Assembly (NCBI GenBank): GCA_964612945.1 | Contig: CAZTFR010000006.1 | Span: 742-64,741, forward strand | Length of the DNA: 64,000 bases | Direction: 5' to 3' | Source: an uncultured Thermoplasmatales archaeon | GTDB taxonomy: Archaea > Thermoplasmatota > E2 > DHVEG-1 | Shown: piece after piece, positions 4,066 through 61,235 of the stretch | Numbering within the stretch: the stretch's first letter is position 1 | How the letters are laid out: every line of letters begins with the position of its first letter | Position numbers and translations under genes: made by a program | The notes under the pieces: generated by a model | What the model was told of the DNA's origin: nothing | Seen by the model: only the letters and a program-made list of their open reading frames with translations | Databases searched by the model: none

Positions 4066-4752
4066 TTACCGCTGAAGAGAAAAATCAAAGTTGAAATCAA
4101 AGGCACGTACACGTTGTGCACGGCCGATAAAAAACGTATAGCTCATATCCGTCATTTTACTTTCAATATCGCAATAAAACCCACGGAATCCTTTCATGAT
4201 GCCAAATTGTATTCCATTAGTCCGCACCACTTCAAAGGGTCGAAATTTCACAACTAATGTTCGCCCAGTAAGAACTTTTGCACGAGGGCCATAATGCCAA
4301 ACGCTCAATCCCCGTTTAACCACTTGAATCTCGTTTTCTTTCAAAAGATTATATCTCTTATAAGCACCGTAGCTTAACACCAATGGATCAGACAGCCGAT
4401 TTGCAAGCGCTGTCTGGGTTCCTTGTTTTTTAGAAAGTATCTTCCCAGGTTTAGTACTGAGATAGGTCGTAAAAAGATGTAATAATTTCTCGATAACGTC
4501 CTGTACAATGGTCGTATTTGGTGGAAACGATGCATCTGCATATTCTTCGAGAATACGAACGATATCTTCTTCAGATGATGCTTCCTGCTCAATGCGATCC
4601 ATAAGCGAACCAAGAACGCGATCAATTTCAGGTTGAATTTGTTTTTGAAAAGAAGATTGCTTAATAGGTCCTGCAGTTATACATGGTGCATACACTGTAA
4701 CTATAAGTAAAAGAATACATCCAATACTCAATACTGCTTGCTTTTTTCTCAT
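4066..4752 (-). CDS. Secreted protein of unknown function, paralog 2 of a tandem pair
   Basis: Signal peptide MRKKQAVLSIGCILLLIVTVYAPCITA. Shares the C-terminal module with 3261..3914. Confidence 0.6.
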   Translation of the reverse strand: MRKKQAVLSIGCILLLIVTVYAPCITAGPIKQSSFQKQIQPEIDRVLGSLMDRIEQEASSEEDIVRILEEYADASFPPNTTIVQDVIEKLLHLFTTYLSTKPGKILSKKQGTQTALANRLSDPLVLSYGAYKRYNLLKENEIQVVKRGLSVWHYGPRAKVLTGRTLVVKFRPFEVVRTNGIQFGIMKGFRGFYCDIESKMTDMSYTFFIGRAQRVRAFDFNFDFSLQR

Positions 4753-4837
4753 ACTCTTGTCACCTGCATAGTATTATTTCTGACTAAAAAATAGATTGAT
4801 TTGAATCATTTATATATTTTTCTATAAAAAAAAATTT

Positions 4838-5137
4838 TTAATAGGCACGCCATCGATGCCCACATTTCACACAAGTGTAAATCCTGGTTTCTGGTTCGTC
4901 ACTACTTCGTGTTTGTCGCAAAACCCAATACGCCTCATTATGATCACACTTGGGACATCGGACCTTGGTTTTTGGAAGAATATCAATATTTTTCTCAAGT
5001 ACAACCGTCTCTTTTTCTTTACGTTTTGAGACCAGAACAGCGCTGCCTTCCTTTTCCTTTTCAAACCCACATTTTGTACAAATAAATTTTTCATCTTTTG
5101 GAAACATCAACGTTTTACACTTCGGACAAAACACCAT
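4838..5137 (-). CDS. tfs: Transcription factor S (TFS, RpoM-like)
   Basis: N-terminal zinc ribbon MVFCPKC...CTKCG. C-terminal ribbon CPKCDHNEAYWVLRQTRSSDEPETRIYTCVKCGHRW carries the acidic DE loop. Canonical M-x-F-C-P start chosen; the track start at 5149 would overlap the upstream gene. Confidence 0.88.
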   Translation of the reverse strand: MVFCPKCKTLMFPKDEKFICTKCGFEKEKEGSAVLVSKRKEKETVVLEKNIDILPKTKVRCPKCDHNEAYWVLRQTRSSDEPETRIYTCVKCGHRWRAY

Positions 5138-5141
5138 ACTC

Positions 5142-5537
5142 TTAATCACCTACCGCATCGTTAATAATTTTTTCATGATCAAAAGATAACTCGGGAAGAT
5201 TTTGTAAGGGAAAAAAACTAACAGCTGCTGCATCATCACCTGCTTTTTCTGAACCCGCAATGATATCAAGCTGATAAACGATGGTAATAGTGTGGCCTCT
5301 TGGATCGCGCTCAGGATCTGAATAGACACCGACTAATCGTTGAATGCGCGTCTTTAGACTGGTTTCCTCCAATACCTCTCGAATTACAGCATTTTCGGTG
5401 GTTTCTCCATACTCGACAAATCCTCCGGGTAATGCCCATTTCCCCTTGAATGGATCGTTTTTTCGTTTCACTAAAAGAACATGTTTGTTCTGAATAATGA
5501 CCGCATCGGTAGTAAGGGACGGATTTTTAAAAGCCAT
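5142..5537 (-). CDS. NUDIX hydrolase
   Basis: Nudix box GGFVEYGETTENAVIREVLEETSL (GX5EX7REUXEEXGU). Confidence 0.85.
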   Translation of the reverse strand: MAFKNPSLTTDAVIIQNKHVLLVKRKNDPFKGKWALPGGFVEYGETTENAVIREVLEETSLKTRIQRLVGVYSDPERDPRGHTITIVYQLDIIAGSEKAGDDAAAVSFFPLQNLPELSFDHEKIINDAVGD

Positions 5538-7792: not shown

Positions 7793-9427
7793 CTAAAAAA
7801 GAGCTGAAACTTGAAGTTCAAATCCAATAACCGGGTGATCTAAATCAAAATTAAGAATGGTTCTTGGGTGAAGCTCGCCAAAAAAACCAATTTCAGCATT
7901 GTCGCATATGAGTTGTGCACATCGGCCCGAGATGAATGCTGGATGATTTTTTTTATCTAATTTAAATGGTTTACCTAAATTTCGAAAAAGAGTTTCAACA
8001 TAGGATTTACACTCTGTGAAATTAGCTTTTGCATCGATTTTAAGAGCTGCAAGATTCCATCTATTACCAGCTTTGTTGTCAACGATAATACCGATCTCAA
8101 AGATTTGTTGGGGAAGCGGATGATGTCGATTCTGACGGAGTAATTTAAGAAGGGACGGTAAAAGACTTACTCGAAGCATTGAATAATCTTCACCAATAGG
8201 ATTTGCAAGGGATACATGAGAGAGAGGGTTCAGTCCAAGATGGTTGAATTCATCTTTTGCGTTTGATATGGAAAAGGTGGTTACTTCGTTGAATTGGAGT
8301 CCAATCATACTAGTGCGAAGATTTTGAAAAAACGGGTGTTGGGAAAGGTTCTTACCGAAGGTGAGAACGGTGGGAAGTTCCGTTGTGAAATTATCATATC
8401 CATATCCTATTGCCACGTCTTCAATGAGATCATATTCGTGAAGGATATCAGCTCGCCAGGGAGGTATTTCTACATTGATTTGATCCGAGGAGACGACTTT
8501 TGCGTTGTAGCCCATTTTATGCAAACAGTCTATTATTTGTTCAGGGGAAAATTTTGTTCCAAGTAGATTGTTAACCTCTCTAACAGAAAGCGTTTTAATA
8601 TTTGAGCTAAGATTTGGATAGGAATATGTTTTTTCTGTGTCAACCACGGTAGTTGTATAGAGCTTTGCCTTCCGTTCTGCAAGGGCTGTGGAAATAATAT
8701 TTAAGGTGTAATGAATAGCTTTTTGATCGGTTCCGGTGACGTCGATAAAAATTTCTGAGGTATAGGGGGTGACTTCAGTGAGTAAACCGTTGATGATCGG
8801 TGGAAAAGATAATACATTATTGAATTTATCAACGATAAGCGGATATGTTTCGTACTTATCAAGGATGAATGCGTATTCCTTTCCTTTTTCGTGTTTCTTC
8901 AATATATTCCGTAAGGTCATTGGATTATCTCTGGCAAGAGGGATAAAGGAGACACTATCAGGATCCACTGCCTTGTAAGTAAATGGTGGTGTTACTGGTT
9001 CAAAATTATGAACACCTATTGCTACTTTCTGGCGATTTCGCCCGATTCCATAATGCAGTTTCTCTTGTAAATCCATTAATGATGCAATAAGTTCGTCGGT
9101 CATTGTTACATTTTTAAGAAGAGCAGTAGCAACAAAAGGACGAACTGTTTTCACCGATGAATCAACATGTAATCTTACATCAGATTGGGATAGTGGATAG
9201 GTTTTCAACCCTGTTTTAAAGCCAAAAAATGCACGAGCTGCTCTGGCAATTCCTTCTACCGAAGTGAGATCGGGACGATTTGGAAAGAATTCAATAGAAA
9301 TTGTATCATTTTCTATCGAATCGAAATCTCCTCCGATCATGGGAAGATGTTCTATCAGTTTTTCTTTTGGTATCTCAAAGCCAAGTAGACTGATGAAATC
9401 ATTGTAGTCAAATGAAATTACAGGCAT
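7793..9427 (-). CDS. pheT: Phenylalanine--tRNA ligase beta subunit (archaeal type)
   Basis: 544 aa. MPVISFDYNDF...FPNRPDLTSVEGIARA N-terminus and overall length are typical of archaeal PheT. Confidence 0.88.
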   Translation of the reverse strand: MPVISFDYNDFISLLGFEIPKEKLIEHLPMIGGDFDSIENDTISIEFFPNRPDLTSVEGIARAARAFFGFKTGLKTYPLSQSDVRLHVDSSVKTVRPFVATALLKNVTMTDELIASLMDLQEKLHYGIGRNRQKVAIGVHNFEPVTPPFTYKAVDPDSVSFIPLARDNPMTLRNILKKHEKGKEYAFILDKYETYPLIVDKFNNVLSFPPIINGLLTEVTPYTSEIFIDVTGTDQKAIHYTLNIISTALAERKAKLYTTTVVDTEKTYSYPNLSSNIKTLSVREVNNLLGTKFSPEQIIDCLHKMGYNAKVVSSDQINVEIPPWRADILHEYDLIEDVAIGYGYDNFTTELPTVLTFGKNLSQHPFFQNLRTSMIGLQFNEVTTFSISNAKDEFNHLGLNPLSHVSLANPIGEDYSMLRVSLLPSLLKLLRQNRHHPLPQQIFEIGIIVDNKAGNRWNLAALKIDAKANFTECKSYVETLFRNLGKPFKLDKKNHPAFISGRCAQLICDNAEIGFFGELHPRTILNFDLDHPVIGFELQVSALF

Positions 9428-9566
9428 ACATCAAGGTGAATCATTGTTTTTAATATAACTCTTTTTGTGGTCCTTAACACTCATTTTTAATATGAGTTGT
9501 AATGGTATTAGGATTATTTTCTAATAAAGGTTTAAATAGCAGGGTGAATTTCAGAGTTGCAGGCGA

Positions 9567-10697
9567 ATGGGAAAAATACTTGTTCTAAACATCGATCGCG
9601 ATGATGATTTCGGCCGTAAAGCAAAGGTGAAAACCCCAATTGTAGGGTTGGAAAATAATCTTGAAGCTGCAAATAAACTCGGTCGTGCCGATCCGGAAGA
9701 TTCAGATTTAAATGCTATTTTTCTTGCCATCAGTACCTATGATTCCTTACAAAAAGAAGGAAAAGATGTCGCCATTGCCACTCTTTGTGGAGATATACGC
9801 GTTGGGCTTCGTTCTGATCAGAAAATTGCAGAAGAACTTAAACAGGCCATAGTGGAGACATATGCAGAAGAGGTCGTTTTAGTTAGTGATGGGGCAGAAG
9901 ATGAATACATCCTTCCTATCATTCAATCAAATATCAAAATCAGCTCTATCCAACGGGTAAGTGTGAAACAAAGCCAAGAACTTGAGGATACCTACTATCG
10001 CATCATAAAAATGCTTGATGATGACAAAGTCAAAAAACAATTTGTATTGCCTGCAGGACTAATACTTATTGTTTGGGCTTTGTTCTGGGTGATGGAAATG
10101 GCCTCTACGGGTGTAGGAGCAATTCTCTTCACCTTAGGATTGTATTTATTGATACGGGTCTTTAATTTAGAACACAGTTTATCGCACTTAGGTCATGAGA
10201 TGAAATCCGGTCTTCTCACAGGAAAATTATCCTATTATACTTATCTTATCGCCCTTGCAATTCTTGCTGCATCATTTTTTGATGCATACACCAATACCCG
10301 TAGCGAACTATACTGGGTGCTCCCTGTGCTCTCCTTTCTTAGCCGTATCGTTTGGGGTATTGTCGCAGCAGGACTTATTGCAGCTTTTGGCCGAGTCATT
10401 GATGTCTACGTGCGAGAAAACAAAGTTCCCTGGCAGTATTGGATCGTCCCATTTTCCTTGTTTGCTTTTGGCTTTATCGGATCAGCAATTCTTACCTCAT
10501 TGTATGATTCCATCGATGCCAGCTTCTCTGTTGATCCCTTCCTTGGATTCCGCTTTGTTGGCTATACCTCTGCAGGAATCATCATCGCACTTATTGGTGC
10601 TATCACCTACCATTATATTAAAGACCTCTATATTACCGAGGAACAAGAAAAAGAAATCGAGGAGCAAACTGTAAAAGCACTGGACAGTGTCCCCTGA
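9567..10697 (+). CDS. Archaeal integral membrane protein, DUF373-like
   Basis: Soluble N-domain (LVLNIDRDDDFGRKA...ADPEDSDLNA) followed by about 6 hydrophobic helices. Family assignment is from memory. Confidence 0.45.
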   Translation: MGKILVLNIDRDDDFGRKAKVKTPIVGLENNLEAANKLGRADPEDSDLNAIFLAISTYDSLQKEGKDVAIATLCGDIRVGLRSDQKIAEELKQAIVETYAEEVVLVSDGAEDEYILPIIQSNIKISSIQRVSVKQSQELEDTYYRIIKMLDDDKVKKQFVLPAGLILIVWALFWVMEMASTGVGAILFTLGLYLLIRVFNLEHSLSHLGHEMKSGLLTGKLSYYTYLIALAILAASFFDAYTNTRSELYWVLPVLSFLSRIVWGIVAAGLIAAFGRVIDVYVRENKVPWQYWIVPFSLFAFGFIGSAILTSLYDSIDASFSVDPFLGFRFVGYTSAGIIIALIGAITYHYIKDLYITEEQEKEIEEQTVKALDSVP

Positions 10698-52423: not shown

Positions 52424-52434
52424 CCTATATTAAA
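52424..52434. repeat. Left copy of the border 11-mer CCTATATTAAA (att candidate or TATA box)
   Basis: Identical to 56553-56563. The reverse complement TTTAATATAGG is TATA-box-like and lies about 25-30 nt upstream of the ATG at 52402. Confidence 0.35.
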
Positions 52435-52726
52435 TTATGGCTGACCGAATGATAAAATAACAGAAGAAGGAGTCATAAGATATTTTTTTTATGATATATA
52501 AAACTAACCCCTAAATTATGTTACTGTGTGACAAGGTGTGAGGAGTCAGAATCTTTGGACAAGATTGAGGTGATATAATCACACTGCTTGACTCCCCAAT
52601 TAATGACAATTGATCATTAGGATTAAGGTTTTTCCCTTGTAAAGTAGGGAGTTTCACCTTACATATGGTGTTATAATGGATTCTTCAACAGGAAAAAAAG
52701 AAAAAAAGAGGGTTTTAGATGTGTGT

Positions 52727-53032
52727 TTATCGCTGTCTTAGCAGTAACAATGCGGAGATCGCGATTGCCAGGATGAAAATAGTCATCGCGACCAAGATAA
52801 GGTTTACAGCCGAGTCAAAACCACCCGTGACATTGATTAGCGTGTTGTTGCTTTGTGTCGTGAGGAAACTGCCGTTGGGCGTCGACGGACTGTCGAGCAA
52901 ATCATTCAATTCCGACACAACAATCCACATGACGAGCCCCATCACCAGCATGCCAGCAAACGCAATACCGATCATCAGAATGACACCGAGATCAATCATC
53001 CCTTCGACATTCTCGCAAAGCTTTCGCAACAT
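52727..53032 (-). CDS. Two-hydrophobic-helix small membrane protein, paralog B (spindle-virus capsid-like architecture)
   Basis: 101 aa: MLRKLCENVEGMIDLGVILMIGIAFAGMLVMGLVMWIVV - linker with NNT and NVT sequons - GFDSAVNLILVAMTIFILAIAISALLLLRQR. Its ATG lies 1 nt after the paralog A stop. The track start at 53083 would overlap paralog A. Confidence 0.6.
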   Translation of the reverse strand: MLRKLCENVEGMIDLGVILMIGIAFAGMLVMGLVMWIVVSELNDLLDSPSTPNGSFLTTQSNNTLINVTGGFDSAVNLILVAMTIFILAIAISALLLLRQR

Positions 53033-53033
53033 A

Positions 53034-53318
53034 TTACACCCGTCTGAGGAGCAACAATGCCGAGATTGCAAGGGCAAGAACAAAGATCGTGATAGCCACT
53101 AAGATAAGATTTACTGCCGAGTCAAAACCCGCGGTAACATTACCCATCGTATTGTTGGCCTGACCGAAATATCCCGTACCAGATAGCTCGGAACCCAAAT
53201 TGTCCCTGATCACCCAAATGATGAAACCGACAACAGCCATACCGACAAACGCAATACCGATCATCAGCACGACAGAGAGATCAATCACCGCACGGGCATC
53301 GTCTTTTAAAGATTTCAT
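53034..53318 (-). CDS. Two-hydrophobic-helix small membrane protein, paralog A (spindle-virus capsid-like architecture)
   Basis: 94 aa: MKSLKDDARAVIDLSVVLMIGIAFVGMAVVGFIIWVI - RDNLGSELSGTGYFGQANNTMGNVTAGFDS - AVNLILVAITIFVLALAISALLLLRRV. A perfect AGGAGG lies 9 nt upstream of the ATG at 53318. Confidence 0.65.
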   Translation of the reverse strand: MKSLKDDARAVIDLSVVLMIGIAFVGMAVVGFIIWVIRDNLGSELSGTGYFGQANNTMGNVTAGFDSAVNLILVAITIFVLALAISALLLLRRV

Positions 53319-53627
53319 TGAAAAAATCCTCCTATTATTTATTTCAGCCCCGGTAGAGCCGCATTTGTTTTCCCTCGAGTTTGACATATTTTGTACCAGC
53401 CTAACCCTGGGGGGCAAAATAAATAGGGAGGAGATATGCCAGGGAAATTCAGGACAAATCTCCCTGATCCATTATGTTACACACTGTTAATAGTGTATTC
53501 AATATATAACAGTTACTACAGAAATGTATATACATTATTTTGTAAACCTATTTATTTAACAGTTAATAATTATTCTATATTTAAAATATTACTCTATCCA
53601 ATGTATATGTATGGTATGAATGAGTTT

Positions 53628-53789
53628 TCAGTCAACATCTCTCGTTTTTGTGCCTGGTTTTTTTGGAAAAATCCTGCGTATTTTCGTTTGATGGCAACGT
53701 GGACAGCGTCCCGAGCCGGGATTTTCAGGAGTGATCCTTTTGCTGAAACGTTGGTTGCATATTTCGCACCAATACATTATTACTGGCAT
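53628..53789 (-). CDS. Zinc-ribbon miniprotein (53 aa), not in the ORF track
   Basis: My translation is MPVIMYWCEICNQRFSKRITPENPGSGRCPRCHQTKIRRIFPKKPGTKTRDVD, with a CxxC...CxxC pattern and a basic tail. GGTG lies 9 nt upstream. Confidence 0.5.
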   Translation of the reverse strand: MPVIMYWCEICNQRFSKRITPENPGSGRCPRCHQTKIRRIFPKKPGTKTRDVD

Positions 53790-53802
53790 CGTTTTGCACC
53801 AT

Positions 53803-53994
53803 TTATGAAACCGTATCTAAGATTCTTTCGACATCCGCTTTATCAAAAAAGCGGTCAGCATCATACCAATTACACGTTTTGCAATGCAGCCTGAAACCGA
53901 ATCTTTCACCAGCGTCATCGAATGCTGGACTTATCGGCCTGAATACAAGAAGGCCAGTGCACCGAGGACAAGCCTGATGGGACAGATCAGTCAA
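53803..53994 (-). CDS. Zinc-ribbon miniprotein (63 aa)
   Basis: CPRC...CKTC. The ATG overlaps the upstream stop as ATGA. Confidence 0.55.
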   Translation of the reverse strand: MTDLSHQACPRCTGLLVFRPISPAFDDAGERFGFRLHCKTCNWYDADRFFDKADVERILDTVS

Positions 53995-54401
53995 CCTGAG
54001 TCCTCCCTATTTTTCCAATATTCAAAGACTTGATCTACAGTAAAACCAGAAATTTTCCTTTTCTTTAATTGATACTGAACAATTTTTGAATCATCAATAT
54101 TTGGATTAGATATGCTTCGTCTTAACCCATGTCCTAAGTCAATCGTCTTATACCATTCTAAAAGTTTGTCAAGTTTTTCGTAATTTTTCTTTTCATCCGC
54201 ATCTAATCGTATATACATTTGTTCAAATTGTATATACAATTCTTTGTGTTTTTGAGCGGATTCTTTGAGCTCTTGTTTCGTTTTGGGGATTTTCACGTCA
54301 TAACCGGCATTCCATATTTCTGGATATTTGATACCTAATTCCTTACAAGTTTCCTTCTGTTGAGATTCAATCCAAAGGGAGATCATCACTTTAGTTGGCA
54401 A
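53991..54401 (-). CDS. Hypothetical protein of the island (136 aa)
   Basis: Helical and lysine-rich, with no motif recognised. TTG start at 54401 preceded by GGGGGGATTAGGA; alternative ATG at 54386. Confidence 0.45.
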   Translation of the reverse strand: MPTKVMISLWIESQQKETCKELGIKYPEIWNAGYDVKIPKTKQELKESAQKHKELYIQFEQMYIRLDADEKKNYEKLDKLLEWYKTIDLGHGLRRSISNPNIDDSKIVQYQLKKRKISGFTVDQVFEYWKNREDSG

Positions 54402-54490
54402 ATCCTAATCCCCCCCAAAAAGACAATACAAATTGGTGAAGTATGGAAAAAAACGTATATATATATACTATATATATACATAGGTCTATA

Positions 54491-54649
54491 CTATACACCT
54501 TTTCTCTCACCTCGCATCGCCGATTCAGATGTGATGTAGAGCCGATCGTTCGAACTCATTTTTTGGTAAATCAATCGAACATTCGATAAATTTTCAATAA
54601 AAGTAACTATTTCGTAAAAATCCCGTACATCGTCAAAACGAAAAATCAT
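54491..54649 (-). CDS. Possible 52-aa protein, not in the ORF track
   Basis: MIFRFDDVRDFYEIVTFIENLSNVRLIYQKMSSNDRLYITSESAMRGERKGV. Overlaps the upstream HTH ORF by 17 nt. Confidence 0.3.
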   Translation of the reverse strand: MIFRFDDVRDFYEIVTFIENLSNVRLIYQKMSSNDRLYITSESAMRGERKGV

Positions 54650-54785
54650 CGCTCCGGATTGTGTCATCCTTTTTTCCTTCCTTTAATTCTTGAATTTCAC
54701 GATCCACAAGTTGAATTGCTTGTTTCACAGTGAGTCCTGTCGCATTGAACAATTCTCTCGGCGTTTTGTATTGGAGAAAATTCAT
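54633..54785 (-). CDS. Possible 50-aa HTH (excisionase/AlpA-like) protein, not in the ORF track
   Basis: MNFLQYKTPRELFNATGLTVKQAIQLVDREIQELKEGKKDDTIRSDDFSF. TPRELFNATGLTVKQAIQLV looks like a helix-turn-helix. Confidence 0.35.
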   Translation of the reverse strand: MNFLQYKTPRELFNATGLTVKQAIQLVDREIQELKEGKKDDTIRSDDFSF

Positions 54786-54791
54786 ACAATA

Positions 54792-54938
54792 TCACTTAAC
54801 TCCCGAACGATCAAGTTCGTTCCTGATGCTTTGTTTTACAAAATCCGCCCTACTCACGAATCCTAATCGCTCTTTATTTTCGTCGATTTTTTGTACAAGA
54901 TTTCTTGGTAGACAAACACACAGGTACTTGCGATTCAT
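54792..54938 (-). CDS. Ribbon-helix-helix (CopG-like) protein of 48 aa, not in the ORF track
   Basis: MNRKYLCVCLPRNLVQKIDENKERLGFVSRADFVKQSIRNELDRSGVK has a beta-strand, helix, helix pattern. GGGGAG lies 8-9 nt upstream of the ATG. Confidence 0.55.
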   Translation of the reverse strand: MNRKYLCVCLPRNLVQKIDENKERLGFVSRADFVKQSIRNELDRSGVK

Positions 54939-54961
54939 ACAAAAACTCCCCACATAAACAT

Positions 54962-55057
54962 ACGATACTTGTATCGTTCACGTATATTTAAAACTTTGCG
55001 ATATGCGTATCGTAACTTATTTTAACCCGTTAGCAATATAGGTATTGTAGGCGATAC
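54962..55057. promoter_or_regulatory. Divergent control region with three CGATAC/GTATCG palindromic operators and a TATA element
   Basis: ACGATAC-TT-GTATCGT (54962-54977), TATATTTAAAA (54983-54993), CGATAT-GC-GTATCG (54999-55012) and GTATTG-TAGG-CGATAC (55042-55057, abutting the ATG at 55059). Confidence 0.5.
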
Positions 55058-55058
55058 A

Positions 55059-55427
55059 ATGGCATCTACGAAACCCAGGGGGAAATATCAAGGCGTTTCG
55101 CTACCGAAAGAATTCTTACGCGAAGTACAAAGAATTGTGTTGAACGATAATAGGTACAAATCAATTGCTGCCTACATCCAGGAGGCTATTAGGGAAAAAA
55201 TGAAAAAGGATCGCTTCTGGGAAACAGATAAACCCCCAGAAAACGAATCAGATTTTAAACGGTTTTCAGATGCTTATTTTCCCGATATGCCCGAAGAAAC
55301 TCGAAAATATTTTGCTGCAAAGCTAATTCTCGATAAACCGTTGATAATAATGGATGAGACTGAAATTAAAAAAATGCTGCAAAAAACAATCAAAGCGGCT
55401 ATAAAAAAAAATAGAGATTTATTTTGA
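55059..55427 (+). CDS. Ribbon-helix-helix domain protein (122 aa)
   Basis: KYQGVSLPKEFLREVQRIVLNDNRYKSIAAYIQEAIREKM forms an RHH N-domain. The 3' end overlaps the integrase 3' end convergently by 9 nt. Confidence 0.6.
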   Translation: MASTKPRGKYQGVSLPKEFLREVQRIVLNDNRYKSIAAYIQEAIREKMKKDRFWETDKPPENESDFKRFSDAYFPDMPEETRKYFAAKLILDKPLIIMDETEIKKMLQKTIKAAIKKNRDLF

Positions 55428-56489
55428 ACCGTTTTTTATCATTCCTTGATACATCGTAAGAAGATGCTCCTTGTCATTTAATAATCGTTCCATTTGTTGC
55501 ATTTTATCTTCGAGTTTGTGAATTCTTTGTTCTTTCTCGGTCATTTCTTTATTGATTTCCTGTAGGTCTGGTGACTGCTCAATAACTGCTATATTGCGAA
55601 CGTATTTGTTGTATTCCTCTGCAAGTTTTCGCTCAGGATATTTTCTGTACGTGCTAAGGTAGCCGCTATGTCCCATTAGATGCTCTGCAAGGTCAGCATT
55701 ACCGAAATAGGTTCGGAAGTATTTTCGGAAACAATGAAAATGTAATTTCATTCTTCCGGTGGTTGGATCTCGTTCAGTATATCCGGCTTTGGACATAGCA
55801 CGATAAAGCGATTCTCTAAGCGTTTTTTGATCATAAGGAAAAACTCTGATGTCGTCCTTTTTTTTGGTGTGTAGGTTGCCGCTGCGTCTCCTTGATGTCT
55901 CGTAATAGGTATCTCTTACTTGCAGCCATGCATTCAATGCTTTTTTTGCCTCATTTGAGATGAAAGTAGTTCGTTTTTTCTTTCGTCCTTTTACGATTTC
56001 TGCTCGAAGATTTATCCGCACCGGATTTTCATCTAAATGTATATCATTCGGCTGCAGTAGCATGAGTTCTTCAATCCTCATACCACTGGATGTACCCATG
56101 AGAACAACAGCACGCCCTCTCACGTCAAGATGCTGCAATATCTTTGCGATGTCCTCTGGTTCAGGTATAAAGTCCTCTGAGACCGGCTCTGCACCTTTTA
56201 ACCGTAAGGATATAGTATCCCAGAGGTCAAGCTCTTTTATTTTTTTATCATGATAGCAGAGAAATTGTTTTACCGCACTTACTGTCGTCTGCGTTGATTT
56301 CAATGGTCTGCCTCGTAGGGAATTATAAAATCTGATGATGTCGGCTTGATAGTCTCGGTCAGGTTGAAAATATGTCCTTATATCAGCATTGATGATCTGG
56401 AAATATTTCCGAATATGATGTCGATAGAGTTTCCGGGTGTTTTTATTTGATACCAATCTATTGGTGAGATATTCCTCAATCTTGTCCAT
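55419..56489 (-). CDS. Tyrosine recombinase / phage-type integrase
   Basis: Catalytic set in order: SSGMRIEEL (Arg), VKGRKKKRT (Lys), HFHCFRKYF (His-x-x-Arg), LMGHS (His) and YLSTYRKY (Tyr). C-terminal coiled-coil tail. First ATG is at 56489; the track start at 56498 is a TTG. Confidence 0.85.
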   Translation of the reverse strand: MDKIEEYLTNRLVSNKNTRKLYRHHIRKYFQIINADIRTYFQPDRDYQADIIRFYNSLRGRPLKSTQTTVSAVKQFLCYHDKKIKELDLWDTISLRLKGAEPVSEDFIPEPEDIAKILQHLDVRGRAVVLMGTSSGMRIEELMLLQPNDIHLDENPVRINLRAEIVKGRKKKRTTFISNEAKKALNAWLQVRDTYYETSRRRSGNLHTKKKDDIRVFPYDQKTLRESLYRAMSKAGYTERDPTTGRMKLHFHCFRKYFRTYFGNADLAEHLMGHSGYLSTYRKYPERKLAEEYNKYVRNIAVIEQSPDLQEINKEMTEKEQRIHKLEDKMQQMERLLNDKEHLLTMYQGMIKNGSK

Positions 56490-56552
56490 AATTATCAATA
56501 AATCTAATGCAAAAATGGTATAAATAGTTTTTCTTGGTCAATCCATAATTAA

Positions 56553-61228: not shown

Positions 61229-61235
61229 AACTGCT

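Follow-up and report, generated by a model that had tools for sequence, protein, structure and literature searches.

The 64,000-nucleotide stretch analysed here (the window; contig CAZTFR010000006.1 of assembly GCA_964612945.1, from an uncultured Thermoplasmatales archaeon) contains a 4,129-bp integrated element. On its minus strand, the element carries two adjoining genes for small, doubly hydrophobic proteins (53318 to 52727), called copy 1 and copy 2. The genes of the pair and their signals are the following.

53034–53318, minus strand: copy 1, capsid-like hairpin protein of 94 amino acids (aa), identified as an open reading frame (ORF) and from its translation; ATG start, TAA stop at 53034–53036
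52727–53032, minus strand: copy 2, capsid-like hairpin protein of 101 aa; ATG start; the loop is longer than in copy 1
53328–53333, minus strand: AGGAGG ribosome-binding site of copy 1, 9 nt ahead of the ATG (direct sequence reading)
52693–52707, minus strand: oligo-T run (T7 C T7), 20–34 nt past the stop of copy 2 (direct sequence reading)

Only one nucleotide, 53033, separates the two genes. The oligo-T run that follows copy 2 is likely an archaeal terminator. Given the AGGAGG motif ahead of copy 1 and the oligo-T run after copy 2, the pair looks like a two-gene archaeal operon. An earlier reading of this DNA, made from the letters without database searches (the sequence-only reading), had described two adjoining genes of 94 and 101 aa lying 1 nt apart, a Shine-Dalgarno site before the first of them (found at 53333 to 53328) and a relationship as tandem paralogues. 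All of these features are borne out, and both genes lie on the minus strand. Over their full length, copies 1 and 2 share 56% identity (BLASTP E = 8e-34), and a pair of DNA repeats in the window, D1/D2, mirrors the likeness of the two proteins.

Both translations start with a charged N-terminal stretch followed by a hydrophobic helix some 25 residues long; a loop rich in Gly, Ser, Asn and Thr leads to a further hydrophobic helix, which ends in a basic tail. Each of the two contains NNT and NVT sequons. The helix-linker-helix plan proposed from the sequence is in line with an AlphaFold2 model of copy 1, which was built from a 77-sequence alignment and contains helices at residues 2–42, 50–62 and 65–93 that form a helical hairpin (mean pLDDT 80). 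The G+C content of the pair (window 52727–53318) is 47.6%, compared with 37.2% for the remaining element and 38.7% for the window. Ala/Gly/Val-rich hydrophobic coding may account for the high value, and a foreign origin is not required.

The proteins belong to a small family. A word-seeded search retrieved 112 homologues, 63 to 140 aa in length, none of which has a Pfam domain. An exhaustive search with a HMMER profile of the family covered 1.84 billion representative proteins and recovered no more than 58 clusters at 50% identity. Using the family itself as query, 91 metagenomic loci were fetched (loci are denoted by L numbers). Tandem pairs or triplets are present in 74 of them, and most single copies lie at contig ends. 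The family is nearly absent from cellular genomes, which yielded one weak match among 185,579 bacterial and archaeal species, each represented by one genome. This sole match, L092 (WJKZ01000017.1), is 14 kb long and was assigned by binning to a Candidatus Omnitrophota bacterium. It is probably a mis-binned archaeal virus contig, as a bacterial host seems unlikely.

Members of the family share several conserved features. Of 162 full-length members, 150 retain a sequon right ahead of helix 2 (N-x-S/T, then G-[FYW]-[DNG]), and two motifs, N-[IV]-T-x-G-F-D in the loop and V-[VI]-D-L in the N-terminal region, are family-specific. The number of homologues, the prevalence of tandem copies and the retention of the sequon are together more than chance would produce. 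In the 61 loci with two full copies, the median length is 89 aa for the upstream and 97 aa for the downstream copy, the latter being the longer one in 55 loci. The nearest relative from another locus holds the same tandem position in 97 of 122 cases, which argues that the duplication is old, as is the case with VP1 and VP3 of the spindle-shaped virus SSV1. A distant sister subfamily, related to the core family with an hhalign probability of 98.6%, is likewise organised as a tandem pair and shares the synteny, with the ATPase described below included. Three proteins of this distant subfamily (P0201, P0206 and P0207; alignment A3) are 221–222 aa long and carry about 120 sequon-dense (N-x-S/T) residues inserted in the loop. 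To judge from their sequences, each would form a hairpin bearing a large ectodomain that is glycosylated.

Clustering of ORFs across the loci revealed a conserved, co-directional virus-like module, which holds most copies of the pair. Its genes encode, in order, a large adhesin-like protein, three multi-transmembrane proteins, a basic 89-aa protein, the tandem pair, 6–7 small proteins and a P-loop ATPase. The sequence-only reading had proposed to check whether homologues from related genomes and viromes sit in larger proviruses; the relatives lie as tandem pairs inside conserved virus-like modules. The adhesin-like proteins range from 650 to 1,970 aa, are rich in N-x-S/T and have a C-terminal anchor; beta-helix domains were recognised in the L005 protein. 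Adhesin-like proteins adjoining the pair at L095 (3–1526), L085 (3677–9583) and L046 (788–6256) consist of many short repeats of the I-N-G-S-Y-S-N-x-T type, which give them an extreme density of glycosylation sequons; they end in a membrane anchor and are up to 1,968 aa long.

The ATPase links the module to spindle-shaped viruses. The protein, about 240 aa in length, matches phrog_5484 over its full length (E = 2.5e-35), a family that also holds SSV1 B251 (E = 5e-101) and His1 ORF16 (E = 3e-62). Identity to SSV1 B251 is 28% (BLASTP E = 2e-25). A tblastn search of 50,697 phage records with the module ATPase matched 29 records, all of spindle-shaped viruses, namely Sulfolobus spindle-shaped viruses (SSVs), Aeropyrum pernix spindle-shaped virus 1 (APSV1) and a betafusellovirus; a scan of IMG/VR with the ATPase alignment returned APSV1 only. 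By these matches, the module ATPase is a homologue of SSV1 B251. It is encoded in 15 of the 18 loci whose sequence continues for at least 4.2 kb past the pair on the downstream side, the median distance from the pair being 2.7 kb. The signature module of spindle viruses consists of a hydrophobic alpha-helical hairpin capsid protein and an AAA+ ATPase (bioRxiv 10.1101/2025.02.15.638363). Since the hairpin pair and a B251-type ATPase occur together, the related contigs carry the spindle-virus signature, with the family described here filling the capsid slot.

Full-size virus-like contigs also carry DNA-modification genes (L050, 12556–13428; L066, 11257–12270 and 13189–14073; L080, 11153–12130). 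These encode a 5-hydroxymethyldeoxyuridine DNA kinase (PF18723, E = 4e-51), an Asn-synthase/QueC-like enzyme and a DNA methylase; a weak match to radical S-adenosylmethionine proteins, under the Pfam cut-off, was found among them. The presence of such genes suggests that genomes in this virus group are hypermodified. In the virus-like contig L001, a NUMOD3 homing-endonuclease-type gene located just upstream of the pair and a gene for a DDE transposase (4609–5301 and 9214–10428) are mobile elements within the virus genome.

The pair resembles the capsid proteins of SSV1 (VP1 and VP3) and His1 (VP21) in several respects. All are proteins of 70–100 aa with two hydrophobic helices, a loop bearing N-x-S/T sequons and a basic C-terminus, and VP1 and VP3 are tandem paralogues as well. 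As in SSV1 and His1, the pair of the relatives is encoded together with a B251-type ATPase and a large adhesin, which is not so for the window copy. In contrast to SSV1 VP1, the proteins of the pair lack a long cleaved N-terminal propeptide. SSV1 VP1 and VP3 are glycosylated (cited in PMC10541130).

In sequence, profile and fold, no such likeness was detected. Copies 1 and 2 have no convincing match to a Pfam-A or PHROG family. Neither protein matched, at E ≤ 1, the His1 capsid protein family PF25665, which every His1-like protein retrieved carries, and neither matched phrog_5402 or phrog_11172, the families that hold SSV1 VP1 and VP3. The family alignment, the distant subfamily and a merged alignment (Neff 3.3) were compared by hhalign, in local, global and low-mact modes, with a 27-sequence His1-like alignment and with SSV1 VP1/VP3. 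The probabilities obtained ranged from 0.2 to 3.5%, in runs that are less sensitive than a full HHpred search. Foldseek searches of the PDB and BFVD with the predicted model returned nothing below E = 0.07, and SSV19 VP1 (7xdi), although contained in the PDB library, was not among the matches; helical hairpins are poorly told apart by searches of this kind. Searched with a profile, PDB sequences yielded spurious matches to designed repeats only. The protein had no tblastn match in 50,697 deposited genomes of phages and archaeal viruses, and a scan of IMG/VR with the family alignment revealed no confirmed relative. The profile and model comparisons that the sequence-only reading had proposed thus came out negative (hhalign probabilities of at most 3.5%; no significant Foldseek match). 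Its statement that the proteins match the SSV1 and His1 capsid proteins holds for architecture and genomic role alone; in sequence, profile and fold no similarity was detected (PF25665, PHROGs, hhalign and Foldseek). These results do not establish homology with the known capsid proteins of spindle viruses.

In the window, the pair is located within the integrated element, the features of which are the following.

52424–56552, no strand: integrated element of 4,129 bp (with one of the repeats counted); not present in the syntenic relative L099
52424–52442, no strand: left direct repeat, candidate attL, CCTATATTAAATTATGGCT; repeat family D7; placed at the position of the agmatinase 3' end in the alignment with L099
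56553–56571, no strand: right direct repeat, candidate attR, CCTATATTAAACTACGCCT; overlaps the agmatinase gene at its last codons and stop
55419–56498, minus strand: intact tyrosine integrase beside attR, 359 aa; PF00589 (E = 2e-13), phrog_1 (E = 2e-22)
55059–55427, plus strand: 122-aa protein, N-terminus possibly ribbon-helix-helix (RHH)-like by our own reading; weak Pfam/PHROG matches only
54792–54953, minus strand: RHH (CopG-like) protein, 53 aa; PF01402 (E = 1.6e-5, over the gathering score)
53991–54401, minus strand: 136-aa protein; no significant family match and no BLASTP match among the ORFs of the 91 loci
53803–53994, minus strand: CxxC zinc-finger-like protein, 63 aa; two CxxC pairs; weak Pfam matches only
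53628–53789, minus strand: zinc-ribbon protein, 53 aa; PF09723 (E = 6e-7, under the gathering score)

The element is bracketed by a 19-nt imperfect direct repeat, CCTATATTAAAYTAYGSCT, in which 16 of 19 positions are identical. The syntenic relative L099 features, in order, genes for a DHH phosphoesterase, a 385-aa surface protein, agmatinase, eIF5A and Hel308. Orthologues of the genes flanking the element are about 27 nt apart in L099 and are 28% and 55% identical to the window proteins. A three-way alignment revealed that the empty site of L099 corresponds to the left flank of the window, the core and the right flank of the window. The direct repeats, the intact integrase and the empty site in L099 together identify a site-specific insertion of 4,129 bp. 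The integrase context noted in the sequence-only reading is confirmed by the PF00589 match at 55419 to 56498.

A tRNA-Arg gene at 61235 was considered as the integration target and rejected, as both the repeats and the empty site locate the insertion to the agmatinase 3' end; the only tRNA gene in the window is 4.7 kb away from the element. The same intergenic site beside agmatinase holds a gene for a 1,275-aa PKD-domain protein in L097 (4173–8000; NCBI CAZUBH010000006.1), and the site therefore varies between genomes. The att core was unmatched in the other loci, Rfam returned nothing for the element and a scan for inverted repeats revealed nothing notable. A plus-strand ORF of 152 aa (53436–53894) overlaps both minus-strand zinc-ribbon genes and is probably spurious. 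By exact look-up in a collection of 15 billion proteins, the integrase, the 136-aa protein and copy 1 were unmatched, though host genes of this contig are present there; differing or absent gene calls may be the reason. Aside from the pair, no B251-like ATPase, adhesin or other viral core gene was found in the 64-kb window.

In its mode of integration, the element resembles those of the pNOB8 type, a class of site-specific elements that integrate without disrupting their tyrosine integrase gene. Common features are an intact integrase gene near one end, short flanking direct repeats and an overlap with the 3' end of a host gene. The elements differ in their target, which in the window is the 3' end of the protein-coding agmatinase gene and not a tRNA gene.

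The named best matches of the window Hel308 protein, at 64–68% identity, are all proteins of metagenome-assembled genomes labelled Thermoplasmatota, Thermoplasmatales or "Euryarchaeota", including SM1-50 and M11B2D, which we take to be Marine Benthic Group D (MBG-D) genomes. The host of the element is a member of the Thermoplasmatota, of an MBG-D/Thermoprofundales-like lineage, as linked by a single integrated copy.

Two relatives of the pair reside in small circular molecules. L010 is a contig of 4,733 bp with a 99-bp direct terminal repeat and represents a complete circle of about 4.6 kb, which encodes a 460-aa integrase and a Prim-Pol protein; the first copy of its pair is 84% identical to copy 1 of the window. 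L054 is a contig of 4,157 bp with a 55-bp direct terminal repeat, corresponding to a complete circle of about 4.1 kb. It carries the pair, a rolling-circle Rep (PF23343, over the gathering score) and a 79-aa protein without a family match, possibly RHH-like by our own reading. Proteins of the window element other than the pair have no BLASTP match in any of the 91 loci. Hence, three unrelated small backbones share the pair and nothing else of the viral module. A candidate for the helper type is L011, the pair proteins of which are 75% and 66% identical to copy 1 of the window.

Elements of this kind are known in other archaea. SRCEs are circular elements of 2.7–9 kb found in haloarchaea and nanohaloarchaea, which combine plasmid replication genes with a spindle-virus capsid gene, an ATPase gene or both (bioRxiv 10.1101/2025.02.15.638363). 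They are interpreted as satellites of spindle viruses, pSSVx, which lacks a capsid gene, being the experimental precedent (bioRxiv 10.1101/2025.02.15.638363). The window element shares with SRCEs, pSSVx and pSSVi a small size (4,129 bp) and an incomplete morphogenetic module, here the pair only. It is integrative, as is pSSVi. L054 and L010 fit the SRCE pattern, as they carry capsid-like genes on plasmid-type backbones with Rep or Prim-Pol. In contrast to SRCEs, the window element is integrated, has its own tyrosine integrase and features no recognised replication protein. It also differs in having two capsid-like genes and no ATPase gene, a Thermoplasmatota host and a capsid-like family unrelated in sequence.

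Among described viruses, the wyrdviruses of Asgard archaea are a close parallel in several traits. Their capsid proteins match His1 at 99.3–99.4% HHsearch probability, and their genes are ordered as capsid, one gene, propeller adhesin, five genes and pI-like ATPase (bioRxiv 10.1101/2021.07.29.453957). Like the virus-like contigs described here, wyrdviruses were found in metagenomes of sediments; their genomes measure about 15 kb and encode an AAA+ ATPase, an adhesin and one or two paralogous capsid proteins. In the present module, however, the order is adhesin-like protein, 4–5 genes, pair, 6–7 genes and B251-like ATPase. Compared by description, the family does not look like the wyrdvirus capsid protein and was rejected as such on this gene order, the lack of His1 similarity and the Thermoplasmatota host. 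The Fylgjavirus of Lokiarchaeum was rejected as well, because it has a double jelly-roll capsid. The 2025 summary by the ICTV, the international body for virus taxonomy, lists the families Fuselloviridae, Halspiviridae, Thaspiviridae, Nipumfusiviridae, Huangdiviridae and Eurekaviridae, and none of the six is assigned to Thermoplasmatota sediment lineages (PMC12451623). In the literature covered, which is incomplete, we found no spindle-shaped virus described for sediment Thermoplasmatota (MBG-D/Thermoprofundales-like).

Taken together, we consider it fairly likely that the pair encodes the major capsid proteins of an undescribed, fusellovirus-like group of spindle-shaped archaeal viruses of sediments and that the 4.1-kb element is an integrative satellite of this group. 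Genomic context and architecture make a capsid role probable. The sequence-only reading had suggested a virus-derived module in an element far smaller than any known spindle-virus genome, a view supported by the genomic context and not by homology. Several points weigh against the interpretation that we favour. The evidence for a capsid role consists of context and architecture, and no similarity in sequence, profile or fold to any known spindle-virus capsid protein was detected, whereas HHsearch did recognise new spindle-virus families published elsewhere, with probabilities of 95–99%. The loci were gathered with the family as query, so that its presence in every locus is given by construction. 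Copies within a locus are more similar (71% identity) than copies holding the same position in different loci (67%), which makes the age of the duplication uncertain. Moreover, the att repeats are short and imperfect (16/19), no replication protein was recognised in the element by Pfam and PHROG scans, and no helper virus is present within the 64-kb window.

Four other explanations were weighed, and are taken here in order of decreasing likelihood. The element could be a defective remnant of a full-size provirus that lost the ATPase, the adhesin and other module genes, leaving the capsid genes as functionless leftovers. The retention of the pair alone out of a conserved module of about 15 genes, the lack of a recognised replication gene and the divergence of the att repeats at 3 of 19 positions would all fit such decay. 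Yet all ORFs, including those of the integrase and of both capsid-like proteins, are intact, expression signals are kept, and the boundaries are clean and fit exactly the empty site of L099. The backbone proteins are unmatched in the 91 loci, most of which are full-size virus contigs, and so the element is not a truncated form of such a virus. As independent complete circles of the same size also carry the pair, we regard a remnant as unlikely. About as unlikely is the view that the hairpins are viral membrane proteins other than capsid proteins, acting as minor virion components, in assembly or egress, or in superinfection exclusion, and that small elements carry them for defence or interference. 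Interference genes are common cargo of satellites, no homology to known capsid proteins was found, and other small multi-transmembrane proteins of the module (clusters c10, c11 and c14) could be the structural ones. Size, the two-helix plan, the basic tail, the loop sequon and tandem paralogy nevertheless fit the pattern of spindle-virus capsid proteins, which no other module gene shows, and known satellites of spindle viruses specifically carry a capsid gene, an ATPase gene or both.

A self-sufficient element, either a minimal virus or a vesicle-forming plasmid that packages itself with two hairpin proteins and without a helper, would explain why three unrelated backbones keep exactly the pair, which is sensible if the pair alone makes a transfer particle. 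All known spindle viruses, as well as 15 of the 18 loci with enough flanking sequence, encode an ATPase and an adhesin-type protein, however, and we found no experimental precedent for self-sufficiency, which is improbable. An equally improbable extension would see the element and its circular relatives as the smallest self-transmissible, capsid-encoding double-stranded DNA replicons known, living intermediates between plasmids and spindle viruses in which the two hairpins would suffice to enclose and export a plasmid-sized genome, with neither ATPase nor adhesin nor helper. Least probable of all is the alternative offered by the sequence-only reading, in which the hairpins carry a class III signal peptide and serve the cell as pilin-like or surface-anchored proteins. 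Across the family, a small residue (G or A) stands before the first hydrophobic helix, and a weak, non-significant match to a Pilin_N chain was obtained (8fj5, E = 0.13). This reading is largely refuted. A FlaFind-type motif ([KRDE][GA]-hydrophobic) fits none of the 162 members, all members have a second, C-terminal transmembrane helix, and no pilin family was matched. Furthermore, the family is found in virus-like modules and is near-absent from the 185,579 cellular genomes.

Under the favoured reading, in which the pair encodes capsid proteins and the element is a satellite, a mechanism can be outlined. By analogy with SSV1 and His1, both hairpins would insert in the host membrane, with the termini in the cytoplasm and the loop outside, where its conserved sequon could be N-glycosylated. 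The hairpins would then pack side by side into the lattice of a membrane-like capsid, their basic tails turned to the DNA. The pair would be the only morphogenetic cargo of the element, beside the integrase, the RHH and zinc-ribbon regulators and the protein without a family match. We infer dependence on a helper: the element may excise when a full-size relative, for which L011-like viruses are candidates, co-infects the cell, and the helper may package and spread the element. The element may supply its own capsid subunits.

If this interpretation is correct, a capsid-like family and a whole virus group have been missed by Pfam, PHROG, the 50,697 virus records and IMG/VR. The integrated copy would provide a direct physical link to a host among the sediment Thermoplasmatota, an abundant lineage. 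Satellites of spindle viruses that carry capsid genes would reach beyond hypersaline archaea, and an integrative form would be added to those known. Finally, the spindle-type hairpin would be able to diverge past the reach of profile detection while its partner ATPase stays recognisable, a feature that would be useful for virus discovery.

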